This document shows, piece by piece, positions 12,274 through 15,996 of a stretch of 64,000 bases of DNA. The notes beneath the pieces are model-generated. The model saw nothing but the letters and a program-made list of their open reading frames with translations, was not told where the DNA came from and searched no databases. How positions within the stretch are numbered: position 1 is the stretch's first letter; each line of letters starts with the position of its first letter. Source of the stretch: Ardenticatenia bacterium (GTDB lineage Bacteria; Chloroflexota; Anaerolineae; 4572-78; NAK82); contig QEXY01000005.1 of assembly GCA_003130875.1 (NCBI GenBank), positions 14,799-78,798 on the forward strand, given 5' to 3'. A program made the translations under genes and the position numbers.

Positions 12274-12301
12274 TTGACAATTAGAACGAATGTGCTATGA
12301 T
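12274..12301 (+). promoter_or_regulatory. Sigma70-like promoter (TTGACA, 16-nt spacer, TATGAT) with an embedded Cheo/LexA-box-like AGAACGAATGTGCT
   Basis: TTGACA is at 12274-12279 and TATGAT at 12296-12301. GAAC-N4-GTGC at 12283-12296 is one mismatch from GAAC-N4-GTTC. Confidence 0.4.
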
Positions 12302-13477
12302 AGAGATGTGCAGATCGTACGTGTACCTGACGCCCGGGAAAAGATTGAGCTCCTCAGCCGACTGGCCGTGCTGGAGTGTGATGGTGATCAGTGCGCAAAG
12401 GTGGTGACGCGTGCCAAAGTAGACTTTCTGCACACTGGCATCGTGCAGGTGCAACGACCCGAAGGCCCAATCCCTGTGCTACGCACGATGCAGAGCAGCG
12501 TTTGCGAACGCAATTGTCACTATTGTGCATTTCGCGCCGGGCACGACGGGGTGCCGCGTCTCAAACTAACACCGGAAGAGCTGGCACGCGCCTTCGACGC
12601 AATGCAACGAGCGGGTATTGTTCGTGGCCTTTTCCTCAGCAGTGGACTGGTCGGCGGAGGCACCCGTACAATGGAACCGATGCTGACGACAGTGGAATTG
12701 CTACGCCGCAAGTATATGTATCGCGGTTACGTCCACTTGAAAATCATGCCAGGTGCTGAGGAAGCTCAAATCGAACAGGCAGTGCACTTGGCCGACCGTG
12801 TCTCAGTCAACTTGGAAGGACCTGATCCCGTACACCTGGCCACCATTGCTCCACAAAAGAATTTTGAGATGGAGCTACTAGCCGCACTGCAACGGGTACA
12901 TCGGTTGGTGCAGGTGACACCACCCGGCCGACGTTCACCAAGCTTGGTGACCCAGTTTGTGGTAGGTCCTGCAGGAGAGAGTGACCGTGATCTGCTGAGC
13001 ACAGCCAGCCGCCTCTATCGAGAGGTAGGGTTGTCACGGGCTTACTATTCCGCTTTCAGCCCGGTGCCAGGGACGCCACTCGACCACTTACCTCCCACAC
13101 CATTGCGACGTGAGCACCGTTTATATCAGGCCGATTGGTTGATACGCTTCTATGGATTTGCTGTGGAGGAGCTCCCTTTCGATCCCGAGGGCAAATTGCC
13201 TATGGATGTGGATCCCAAGCTGGCATGGGCACGCGCTCATCTCGCGCAGCAACCGGTGGAGGTCAATCGCTGCAGTCGCCCACAGCTATTGCGCGTGCCG
13301 GGCATCGGTCCGCGCACCGCGGATGCTATTTTGGAAGCACGTCGTCGTGGCAGGCTGCGCGATCTATCTGACTTGCGTGCGTTGGGCGTATCGATCAGTC
13401 GTGCAGCACCGTTTATTCTGCTTGATGGGCATCGGCCACCCTATCAGCTGCGCTTGTGGAATGTTGATAAACCTTGA
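12290..13477 (+). CDS. Putative DNA modification/repair radical SAM protein (TIGR03916-like) with a C-terminal helix-hairpin-helix
   Basis: It has the CX3CX2C cluster CERNCHYC, then REHRLYQADWLIRFYGF and LLRVPGIGPRTADAILEARRRGRL. The start is ambiguous between ATG 12290 and GTG 12308. Confidence 0.8.
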   Translation: MCYDRDVQIVRVPDAREKIELLSRLAVLECDGDQCAKVVTRAKVDFLHTGIVQVQRPEGPIPVLRTMQSSVCERNCHYCAFRAGHDGVPRLKLTPEELARAFDAMQRAGIVRGLFLSSGLVGGGTRTMEPMLTTVELLRRKYMYRGYVHLKIMPGAEEAQIEQAVHLADRVSVNLEGPDPVHLATIAPQKNFEMELLAALQRVHRLVQVTPPGRRSPSLVTQFVVGPAGESDRDLLSTASRLYREVGLSRAYYSAFSPVPGTPLDHLPPTPLRREHRLYQADWLIRFYGFAVEELPFDPEGKLPMDVDPKLAWARAHLAQQPVEVNRCSRPQLLRVPGIGPRTADAILEARRRGRLRDLSDLRALGVSISRAAPFILLDGHRPPYQLRLWNVDKP

Positions 13478-13535
13478 TGCGGCTACCACGGACCGAGAAA
13501 CTGGTAACACGTAGACAAACCGGCGAGGGAATTCG

Positions 13536-14663
13536 ATGACCTGGCTACCATTGGATCAAGTTGTGTTAGGTGACTGTGTCGAGGTGCTTGAGCGATTGCC
13601 GCCGGACAGTATCGACTTGATCTTCGCCGACCCACCCTATAATTTGCAGCTGCGGCAGGAGCTGTGGCGGCCCAATTCGACCCGCGTGGATGGGGTGGAC
13701 GACGAATGGGATCGATTTTCCGATTTCGCTGCCTATGATGCATTTACTGAAGCTTGGCTGCGCGCTTGTCAGCGCGTGCTCAAGAGCACCGGAACTATTT
13801 GGGTCATTGGCACTTATCACAACATCTTCCGCATCGGTCGCCTGATGCAGGATCTTGACTTCTGGATCCTCAACGATATCATTTGGGTCAAGGCCAACCC
13901 GATGCCCAACTTTCGTGGTGTGCGTTTCACTAATGCGCACGAGACGCTCATCTGGGCACAGAAGAAACGCGGCGCACGGTACACCTTCAACTACCATGCG
14001 ATGAAGCACCTCAACGACGAAAGACAAATGCGCAGCGATTGGGAGATACCCCTTTGTACGGGTGATGAGCGTGTGCGTATTAACGGGCGGAAAGCTCATG
14101 CCACTCAAAAGCCCGAAGCGCTCCTATACCGAATCATCCTAGCCTGTTCTAACCCAGGTGACGTGGTGCTGGATCCCTTCTTTGGGAGTGGCACCACAGG
14201 TGTTGTGGCCAAGCGGTTGGGACGTCATTGGATCGGTATTGAACGTGAGAGCACCTACGTGGAAATAGCCCTTGCTCGCATCGAGAAAGTACAACCCGTT
14301 CCGTCCGAGAGTCTGATGCTCCCTAGCACACGGCGTCCCAGACGCATACCTTTCGGAATGTTGGTAGAATGTGGTCTGATTCGTCCGGGGCAGTTTCTGT
14401 ATCTGGGGTCAGAGGGACAGATAAGCGCCACTGTACTGGCGGATGGGTCGCTGCGATGTGGCGATCTAACCGGTTCCATCCATCAAGTCGCTTCTCGGCT
14501 TGAGGGAGCTCCGTGTAACGGATGGGAACATTGGTATTACGAGGACGTAGAAAGTGGTGAGCGTCGTAGCATCAATGTGCTGCGTGAGGTAATGCGTAAA
14601 CTGAAACAGGACCTTATGAGCGATGCGCACGACTCTGACCAATCTACTGGCACGCGGGGCTAA
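13536..14663 (+). CDS. Beta-class N6-adenine DNA methyltransferase of the CcrM/M.HinfI family
   Basis: Motif [11 protein letters not shown] is N-terminal and motif [13 protein letters not shown] follows it. A CcrM-type C-terminal extension is present ([20 protein letters not shown]...[24 protein letters not shown]). Confidence 0.85.
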
Positions 14664-15996
14664 CCAGACCACCGCTTTTCTACCCGTGCCGGACGCGGAA
14701 ACTCTGGCCGAAACGTTGGTCGCTTTTGCCAACGCAGATGGCGGCACCGTGCTGTTGGGCATTGATGCACACGGAGTTGTGCACACTGCGCTGTTACCCG
14801 AGGAAGTCGAGGCTATGCTGGCACGCGCCCTGGGCATGTGCCGCCCACCTGTGGTCACCCAGTGGGGTCAATCGGAACTCGCACAAGGAACGATTATACA
14901 CATCACGGTACCGCGCAGCCCGGAGTTACACAGCCTGGCCGATGGACGCGTCCTGGTACGCCATGGCGTGCTTAACATGCCACTGGGTGGAGACGCCATC
15001 CGCCAGCTGGCCGCTACAAAATCCACCGGGGATTTCGAAGCTGAGCCAGTGCAGGGCGCCACGCGGTCGGATCTGGATGATTTCATCATCGAAGAGTACC
15101 TTAACAAGCGTCGTGAGCGCGGTCGCCATCCTATTAGAGGTTCCGTCGACGAGCACCTGATCAGCATCGGCGCTCTGACTGAGACGGGGGTCCCCACTAT
15201 TTCGGGATTGTTGCTGTTTGGGAAACGGCCTCAAGAGTTCTTGCCCCAAAGTGGCATCGTCTTTGTGCGTTTCGAGGGAAGTGAGCCCCGCGGCAAAAAT
15301 GGTCTGCCTGGATATGGCCGGCGGGCAGAGCTGGAAGGTCCCCTGGCGCGACTCGTGGAGGCGGCTTGGAACATCACCTGGCAGGAGATGCGTGTGGGCG
15401 CCGTGGTGGTCGGTCTGAAGCGTGAGGAACTGCCCGAGTATCCTCCATTTGCGGTGCGCGAGGCGTTGGTAAACGCTATCGCTCACCGTGATTATCGCCT
15501 CACTGGACGACGTGTTGAGATTCGCATGTTCGAAGACCGCTTGGAGGTCATCAGTCCTGGTGGACTGCCCGGTTACATCACCGTGGATAACATTGTCGAG
15601 GAGCACTTCTCACGCAATCCGCGCATCGTGGCTGGGCTTTTCCAATGGGGCTACATTGAGGAGCTCGGACTGGGCATCGATCGTATGATCGAGGAGATGT
15701 TGCAGCACGGGCATCCCGCACCTGAATTCAAAGCGACTCCATACTCGTTCACCGTGACGTTGCGCAATACACGTGAACGTCCCCCTGTGCAGGCATGGGA
15801 ACACAATATGAACGAGCGCCAGATGCGCGCGTTAGCTTACGTGCGCGAATTCGGACGTATCACAAACCGCGAATATCGCGATCTATGCCCATCCGTATCT
15901 CCAGAGACTTTGCGTCTGGACCTCGCCGATCTAGTGGAAAAGAACCTCTTGCTCAAGATCGGTGACAAACGTGGTACTTATTATATTCTGAAATAA
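14623..15996 (+). CDS. AlbA_2 (Schlafen-like 'divergent AAA') + HATPase_c_4 + winged-HTH protein
   Basis: The N-terminus has [17 protein letters not shown]. The centre has [13 protein letters not shown]...ISPGGLP...SRNPRI...GLGIDRM. The C-terminus is wHTH-like. It overlaps the methyltransferase gene by 41 nt. Confidence 0.75.

Follow-up and report, generated by a model that had tools for sequence, protein, structure and literature searches.

Positions 12,274 to 15,996 of a 64,000-nt stretch of an Ardenticatenia genome (contig QEXY01000005.1; the stretch at its full length is called the window below) hold three genes, all on the + strand, that encode a radical-SAM protein (gene 1), a DNA methyltransferase (gene 2) and a Schlafen-type protein (gene 3). 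They are best read, with a probability of roughly 0.6, as a lineage-specific row of three independently conserved genes of Anaerolineae/Ardenticatenia-type Chloroflexota, probably co-transcribed and probably driven by an SOS-box promoter, and not as a dedicated three-component system. The sequences show the gene content, the conservation pattern, the conserved promoter and SOS box, the loss of a nuclease motif and a repeat array; from them we infer the co-transcription and LexA control of the trio and all biochemical activities of its products. The genes are regarded as neighbours and not as a dedicated system because each of them stands alone elsewhere among housekeeping genes. This departs from an original prediction, made from the letters of the window, which had proposed a DNA modification, damage-processing or defence module. 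The module part of that proposal is not supported here, as the genes are solitary in other lineages, insertions interrupt the row, the nuclease motif of gene 3 is lost and the defence-system search with PADLOC is negative. The underlying layout was correctly described: three same-strand open reading frames (ORFs) at 12290-13477, 13536-14663 and 14623-15996, with a 58-nt gap between genes 1 and 2 (13478-13535) and a 41-nt overlap between genes 2 and 3 (14623-14663). The region contains the following features.

12274..12301, + strand: promoter of the unit, with -35 TTGACA at 12274-12279, a 16-nt spacer and -10 TATGAT at 12296-12301 after TG (consensus scan)
12284..12295, + strand: LexA-type SOS (Cheo) box GAACGAATGTGC, within the promoter spacer, matching the palindrome GAAC-N4-GTTC at all positions but one
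12308..13477, + strand: gene 1, radical-SAM protein with C-terminal HhH (COG4277, TIGR03916-like; family matches; probable start GTG 12308, listed ORF 12290-13477)
13536..14663, + strand: gene 2, orphan beta-class N6-adenine DNA methyltransferase of the CcrM/M.HinfI family with C-terminal RAMA (family matches)
14623..15996, + strand: gene 3, Schlafen(AlbA_2)-GHKL ATPase-wHTH protein (family matches and structural model)
16098..16139, + strand: four direct repeats TATCCCAAA with starts at 16098, 16111, 16121 and 16131, 102 nt past the gene-3 stop

Conservation and expression of the three-gene row

Orthologs of gene 1 were surveyed at 80 Chloroflexota species loci, each with 10 kb on either side. 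The order gene 1, gene 2, gene 3 recurs at loci L001-L007, L009, L011 and L098-L101, which represent about 11 distinct relatives, and gene-1 identity in this trio clade is 62-91% where measured (L001-L007, L009 and L011), with the lowest values at 62-65%. The flanks of the trio vary by sub-clade: genes for protein-L-isoaspartate O-methyltransferase (PCMT) and an AmmeMemoRadiSam enzyme lie downstream in one, while other sub-clades have KsgA upstream and a GH10-like or 2-hydroxyacid dehydrogenase gene downstream. Across the 80 loci, the neighbours of gene-1 orthologs are highly varied and mostly housekeeping, for example thymidylate-kinase-like, ABC-binding protein, KsgA, D-Tyr-tRNA deacylase and enoyl-CoA hydratase genes. 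Gene-2 orthologs of 66-70% identity stand by themselves in housekeeping surroundings, as do gene-3 orthologs of 60-69% identity. Conservation of the neighbourhood, a point raised in the original prediction, is therefore partial: the row is kept in about 11 relatives, and each gene is found alone in other lineages.

The links within the row differ in strength. Between genes 1 and 2, L009 carries genes for a 260-aa unknown protein and a 748-aa WD40-repeat protein (2683-5708), and L101 carries genes for an SLATT_2 protein and a 113-aa unknown protein (5952-7004), so that this junction seems to tolerate or attract insertions. In L197, genes 2 and 3 form a pair without gene 1. The tightest link, that between genes 2 and 3, is confined to loci with a gene 3 of at least 77% identity.

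The sole strongly conserved promoter of the trio lies upstream of gene 1 and matches the consensus at 11 of 12 positions. In an alignment of the window with its five closest genomes (L001-L005), the 28 nt CTTGACAATTAGAACGAATGTGCTAT(G/C)AT are invariant in all six, and the sequence further upstream is unalignable. The internal junctions carry only GAGG, a Shine-Dalgarno-like sequence, and lack a conserved promoter; nor does any terminator-like site separate the genes. This arrangement agrees with the single apparent transcription unit that had been proposed.

Transcription of the unit would begin at a promoter carrying a LexA-type box in its spacer, where the putative LexA target is CTTGACAATTAGAACGAATGTGCTATGAT. 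Given the position of this box, LexA would be expected to keep the unit repressed until DNA damage induces it. In the interval from -250 to +60 of the gene-1 ortholog, a perfect GAAC-N4-GTTC box is present at 32 of the 80 loci, compared with a mean of 1.35 (maximum 5) in random 310-nt windows over 1000 trials; with one mismatch allowed, the count is 45 of 80, against a random mean of 2.2 (maximum 8). Inside the window alone the box occurs at chance frequency (4 matches vs 4.4 expected), and the weight of the argument rests on the cross-species enrichment. Where gene-2 or gene-3 orthologs stand alone, no SOS box precedes them. Fernandez de Henestrosa et al. are said to have reported the GAAC-N4-GTTC box for Dehalococcoides too, in J Bacteriol in 2002. 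The motif is the LexA motif of Gram-positive bacteria (PMC3323433). The canonical COG1573-COG4277 pair, to whose second member gene 1 is related, belongs to the SOS regulon in Bacteroidetes, Verrucomicrobia and Alphaproteobacteria (PMC8565304) and is damage-regulated in Acinetobacter (PMC12392091).

The conserved promoter also bears on the start of gene 1. The ATG at 12290, taken as the start codon in the original prediction, sits within the promoter spacer/-10 region. Homologs of gene 1 begin with MRTIV or MQTIV, corresponding to residue 7 of the listed window protein, and codon 7 (12308), which is GTG or ATG among relatives, lies 7 nt past the -10 hexamer. Because homologs start at this residue and the codon is conserved at this distance from the -10 element, GTG 12308 is most likely the true start, and the mRNA, probably beginning at that same codon, would be leaderless. 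On the opposite side of the promoter, a divergent 101-aa ORF at 11704-12034 (- strand) shows a similar layout: it has a strong promoter-like site, TTGACA-18-TATGAT (11 of 12 positions), and its own ATG falls within the -10 hexamer, mirroring gene 1. This ORF has no family matches and is conserved in the closest relative only.

Several observations weigh against reading the trio as independent genes that share an SOS-controlled promoter. The neighbour-joining (NJ) tree built from gene-1 orthologs nests the trio-less loci L008, L010 and L012-L014 within the trio clade, which implies either gain plus loss or a wrong tree. The trio survived two independent rearrangements of its flanks, possibly because co-expression was selected for, which would amount to real functional coupling. 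The SOS box of the window is imperfect (GTGC, one mismatch), and no lexA gene is present in the 64-kb window. Finally, the repeat array behind gene 3 is missing in L197, which has the gene 2-gene 3 pair only, and at the gene-3 orthologs of L085, L087 and L088, so that its tie to gene 3 is not universal. For annotation, the locus serves as a caution, as three DNA-directed genes on the same strand can mimic a 'system'.

The three proteins and their surroundings

Gene 1 carries the cysteine motif C72-x3-C76-x2-C79, the REHRLYQADWLIRFYGF block and the HhH motif LLRVPGIG, and Pfam assigns it Radical_SAM (48.8 bits), HHH_3 (32.4 bits) and HHH (26 bits). Its match to TIGR03916 (rSAM_link_UDG) spans residues 61-382 and profile positions 51-380 of 415, leaving the first 60 residues unmatched. 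The motifs and the E-value of 2e-83 support its description as a TIGR03916-type protein in the original prediction; the score of 280.8 bits stays under the curated cut-off of 343.5. An AlphaFold 2 (AF2) model, with a predicted local distance difference test (pLDDT) score of 79, forms a radical-SAM barrel whose nearest folds are BioB, HydE and LipA. The label 'SplB-like' was dropped as a structural claim, because sequence and fold searches against the PDB give generic radical-SAM barrels only (BioB, HydE, LipA and viperin).

The canonical TIGR03916 gene is accompanied by a partner. At three canonical loci, on plasmids of Rhizobium, Paracoccus and Burkholderia, a gene for a 'UdgX family'/UDG protein of about 480 aa follows it and overlaps its stop codon. 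A profile hidden Markov model (HMM) built from three canonical UdgX-type proteins (loci L082-L084) gave no match at E <= 10 when the window and 81 related loci were searched as six-frame ORFs. The Pfam results for 17 window ORFs, a subset of the window genes that includes the flanking ones, likewise contain no DUF4130 or UDG domain, which upholds the earlier statement that no such partner stands alongside. Within 10 kb on either side the partner is absent at all 80 Chloroflexota species loci; its absence is a property of the whole Chloroflexota subfamily and is not special to this locus. In the NJ tree, the grouping of gene-1 orthologs largely follows the named taxon. On sequence grounds, gene 1 is a distinct stand-alone branch of COG4277, a Chloroflexota-wide subfamily, because it is about 40% identical to the canonical proteins, lacks their N-terminal cysteines and insertions and has no partner within 10 kb. 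The DUF4130/UDG partner is therefore not universally required by the COG4277/TIGR03916 family.

In the absence of such a partner, the HhH of the gene-1 enzyme would contact DNA, and its 5'-deoxyadenosyl radical would repair or process some DNA lesion. The COG4277/TIGR03916 family is widespread, damage-regulated and biochemically uncharacterised, and the stand-alone Chloroflexota version offers a simpler one-protein system for tracing the substrate lesion. No prior report was found of a partner-less, apparently LexA-controlled COG4277 subfamily; the novelty is modest. An AlkZ-related DNA glycosylase gene adjoins or neighbours the radical-SAM ortholog at L017 (11164-12048) and also at L025, L067 and L078, the match to PF24741 (E = 1e-39) coming from the single member scanned (L017). 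This proximity is a second DNA-repair association of the gene-1 subfamily.

Gene 2 was correctly recognised as a beta-class N6-adenine methyltransferase of CcrM type. Pfam assigns it N6_N4_Mtase (229.9 bits) and RAMA (50 bits), the FADPPYN (DPPY) motif is present, and it aligns with Caulobacter CcrM (PDB 6PBD) over residues 8-352 at E = 1e-140 and, judged by eye, about 60% identity. CcrM is also its best NCBIfam model, with a score of 550.5 bits that is under the equivalog cut-off of 830; gene 2 is a CcrM relative, not a Caulobacter-type equivalog. Its predicted target, judged from the close match to CcrM and from methylation measured in Chloroflexi, is GANTC. No restriction gene lies beside the methylase, either here or at five other orthologs. 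N6-methyladenine (m6A) at GANTC has been measured, together with orphan methylases, in three metagenome-assembled genomes (MAGs) of Chloroflexi (PMC6329791), and some Chloroflexi are known to carry CcrM homologs that include the C-terminal domain (PMC3973325), so gene 2 is of an already known kind in this phylum. Such an enzyme would place m6A on GANTC genome-wide, as maintenance or regulatory methylation and not as part of restriction-modification.

The observed-to-expected (O/E) ratio of GANTC is 0.85 in the window and 0.80-0.83 at related loci, values that say nothing on restriction pressure either way. A GANTC-free stretch of 3 kb at 11093-14130, which spans gene 1 and runs into gene 2, was considered and rejected as a signal: about 6.8 sites are expected there, gaps of this length are expected about 0.15 times per window, and the stretch is not significant after correction for about 144 intervals. 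GGNCC is the most under-represented NNxNN palindrome in the whole window (149 observed vs 236 expected, O/E 0.63) and is much more depleted than GANTC (0.63 vs 0.85). One possible cause of this depletion is a Sau96I-type restriction system within the lineage.

Gene 3 has the three domains that had been read from its sequence, AlbA_2, HATPase_c_4 and wHTH. The first two are supported by Pfam: SLFN_AlbA_2 (PF04326) scores 38.2 bits against a cut-off of 25.3 and covers profile positions 20-112 of 118, and HATPase_c_4 (PF13749) scores 80.4 bits. The C-terminal wHTH is indicated by the AlphaFold model and its fold matches only. This model (pLDDT 70) resembles the uncharacterised structure 3LMM, GHKL kinases, a lobe of SLFN12 and wHTH proteins, and its GHKL domain folds like PDK and the CA domains of histidine kinases. 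In the ATPase N-box, E280 and N284 are invariant, and ATP binding through this intact box is predicted.

The original prediction had suggested that the AlbA_2/Schlafen-like protein could act as an effector. At the position of the Ex4(E/D)xK motif, gene 3 reads A13-x4-A18-x-L20, and the motif is missing in all 10 aligned gene-3 orthologs, which show P/A, A/E/D and L/I/M there. Bacterial Schlafen defence nucleases require Ex4(E/D)xK (PMC13056530), and a role as nuclease effector is unlikely because this motif is lost. In plasmid relatives of gene 3, GExxxxEFK is kept in 3 of 4 aligned sequences; among representatives of clusters made at 50% identity, the motif is mostly absent at 40% identity and above and mostly retained at 33-40%. 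Gene 3 is the best conserved of the three genes, with 79-97% identity where gene 1 has 62-91%, and hundreds of orthologs at 65-94% identity and a constant length of 454-457 aa occur across Chloroflexota metagenomes and MAGs. Its product would be a nuclease-dead, ATP-switched and oligomerising nucleic-acid-binding regulator. GHKL-driven tetramerisation is known for one Schlafen-GHKL protein (bioRxiv 10.64898/2026.05.29.728809).

The surroundings of the trio, as scanned in the window, are housekeeping in character and include genes for a subtilase, a glycosyltransferase, PCMT, an AmmeMemoRadiSam radical-SAM enzyme, O6-methylguanine methyltransferase (MGMT), RodZ and others, with flat GC content over the region. 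The PCMT gene and the convergent gene for the AmmeMemoRadiSam-system radical-SAM enzyme lie at 16221-18017 and are syntenic in L001-L005; no AMMECR1/Memo partner gene was seen beside the latter. At about 31000-32000 of the window, the cumulative GC skew reaches its maximum (near 31 kb) and the predominant gene strand switches from + to -. The MGMT gene (31837-32346, - strand) stands near this peak.

Alternative explanations and the repeat array

It is possible, on the unlikely side, that the three proteins cooperate. Damage-induced radical-SAM DNA chemistry would then be coupled to GANTC methylation, which the Schlafen-GHKL-HTH protein would read or control. The approximately 11 relatives keep both the gene order and the close packing (-41 to about +120 nt) despite rearranged flanks, the single conserved promoter stands ahead of gene 1, and all three products are predicted to act on or bind nucleic acids. 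The adjacency of genes 2 and 3 is moreover unbroken in loci whose gene 3 is at least 77% identical. Cooperation fits poorly with the finding that each gene is alone in most Chloroflexota lineages, with the foreign genes between genes 1 and 2 in L009 and L101, and with the L197 pair that does without gene 1. The trio has also been lost in a group nested within its clade, and neither fusion nor co-occurrence is seen outside one family-level clade.

The repeats behind gene 3 recur in relatives. An ATCCCAA(A/G) array of 3-5 copies with a period of 10-11 lies 3' of gene 3 in almost all trio-clade loci whose sequence covers this flank, and is present whatever gene lies downstream. Besides the window, it was found at L001-L011, L098-L101, L102, L139, L142, L163, L214 and L218. 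Among the matches listed, it also follows gene-3 orthologs (60-88% identity) with neither a methylase nor a radical-SAM gene beside them, as at L139, L163, L218 and others. In the metagenome pattern scan, which looked for a triple ATCCCAA, about 90% of the listed matches were unrelated low-GC tandem repeats and 7-8 were informative. A generic repeat finder reports repeats of at least 12 nt only and therefore missed this 9-nt array. Some versions also contain the repeat in inverted orientation and form strong hairpins (z about -3.5), and Rfam gave no match for 11500-16500 at E <= 1. The repeat motif TTATCCCAA shares 7 of 9 positions with the DnaA box TTATCCACA, and a DnaA-box reading was considered on this ground.

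The array is a candidate cis element of gene 3, in the form of wHTH binding sites, a structure of the 3' untranslated region or a promoter element. As helically phased repeats, the ATCCCAA copies would be the best candidate binding site for the gene-3 regulator. No prior report was found of a repeat array tied to gene 3, and here too the novelty is modest. At L085 (9366-9480), and also at L086, a more distant gene-3 ortholog (67%) is followed by analogous direct and inverted TTGTGAA copies, with an RNA z of -3.3 and a T-run. This structure hints at co-evolving protein-site pairs or at terminators built from repeats.

On this basis, gene 3 and its 3' array may act as a self-sufficient unit of protein and site, for instance with an ATP-driven tetramer sitting on four repeats spaced by a helical turn, and the trio clade would have captured this regulator and the methylase behind a LexA promoter with the partner-less radical-SAM gene. 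Such a unit and its capture are considered speculative and improbable. If true, GANTC methylation and its reader would become inducible by DNA damage, and a branch of the largest prokaryotic Schlafen class would gain a known binding site and a role directed at the chromosome instead of at defence.

Mere adjacency is a further explanation, in which the genes are transcribed independently and owe their shared strand and short gaps to genome compaction and recent common ancestry. A promoter-like site inside gene 2 (13855-13882, 10 of 12 matches) is consistent with this view, as are the absence of linkage elsewhere and the narrowness of the clade (gene-1 identity of 62-65% or more where measured). 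Yet the flanks on both sides changed between sub-clades while the trio stayed, and the junctions keep a Shine-Dalgarno-like sequence without a conserved promoter, compared with the invariant 28-nt promoter at gene 1. In several relatives, moreover, the stop codon of one gene overlaps the start codon of the next or is 10-20 nt away from it. Adjacency of this kind is accordingly judged doubtful, and a shared transcript of independently conserved genes remains the preferred reading.

An anti-phage or restriction-like defence, in which the methylase would mark self DNA and the Schlafen-GHKL protein would be sensor or effector, is very improbable: it can draw on Schlafen-GHKL(-HTH) being the commonest class, with some proven defence nucleases (PMC13056530; bioRxiv 10.64898/2026.05.29.728809), on a plasmid relative of gene 3 within a type I restriction-modification operon, on the SLATT_2 gene inserted in the cluster of L101 and on a partial PADLOC match to a Schlafen-pAgo model, but neither the window protein nor any close ortholog keeps Ex4(E/D)xK. 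Gene 3, with 79-97% identity, is better conserved than genes 1 and 2 and widespread in Chloroflexota, contrary to what is typical of defence genes. Its surroundings are housekeeping, no nuclease accompanies the orphan methylase orthologs, and the depletion of GANTC is mild (O/E 0.85, vs 0.80 in other Chloroflexota). PADLOC recognised no defence system, returning generic methylase models and the partial match of the Schlafen-GHKL N-terminus to the pAgo model.

Comparison with known systems

The closest known relative of gene 1 is the canonical COG4277/TIGR03916 protein with its partner, to which it is about 40% identical over its whole length. Both share the CX3CX2C motif, the REHRLYQADWL block and a C-terminal HhH, and LexA-type operators lie ahead of both the gene-1 orthologs (at sequence level) and the canonical pair (PMC8565304; PMC12392091). 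In contrast to the canonical protein, gene 1 lacks three conserved N-terminal cysteines (DASCASSG, GICH, GRCIS) and insertions of 10 and about 18 residues, and it is partner-less within 10 kb on either side in the window and at the 80 loci, whereas all three canonical plasmid loci have the partner. The biochemical function of the canonical COG4277 pair is itself unestablished (bioRxiv 10.64898/2026.08.19.745780; PMC3765255).

Spore photoproduct lyase (SplB/SPL) is the characterised radical-SAM enzyme of DNA repair, and gene 1 has in common with it the radical-SAM chemistry and a connection with the response to DNA damage. The name 'SplB-like' has been applied to COG4277 (PMC3765255), and SPL belongs to a separate family, COG1533 (PMC8565304). 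The PDB sequence search gave no match between gene 1 and SPL, which also falls outside the top 50 folds of gene 1, where BioB, HydE, LipA and viperin come first.

CcrM of Caulobacter crescentus resembles gene 2 over the full length, including the C-terminal DNA-binding (RAMA) domain, in the DPPY motif and in having no partner nuclease. Gene 2 differs from it in scoring below the equivalog cut-off (550 vs 830 bits) and in standing behind an SOS-box promoter, which it does in the trio clade only. Compared with type II restriction-modification, gene 2 has no cognate endonuclease, and its neighbours are the radical-SAM and Schlafen-GHKL genes.

Gene 3 has the same three-domain architecture as the 'Schlatpase'/pSlfn HisKinase-HTH class and retains the N-box glutamate and asparagine. 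Schlafen-GHKL(-HTH) is the most frequent prokaryotic Schlafen architecture (PMC13056530; bioRxiv 10.64898/2026.05.29.728809). Unlike pSlfn proteins, gene 3 and most of its nearest relatives are without Ex4(E/D)xK, and the gene is strongly conserved and not patchy, lies outside a defence island and has a conserved repeat array behind it. As the roles of this class are largely unknown, a conserved, nuclease-dead branch together with a candidate cis element offers a testable non-defence function.

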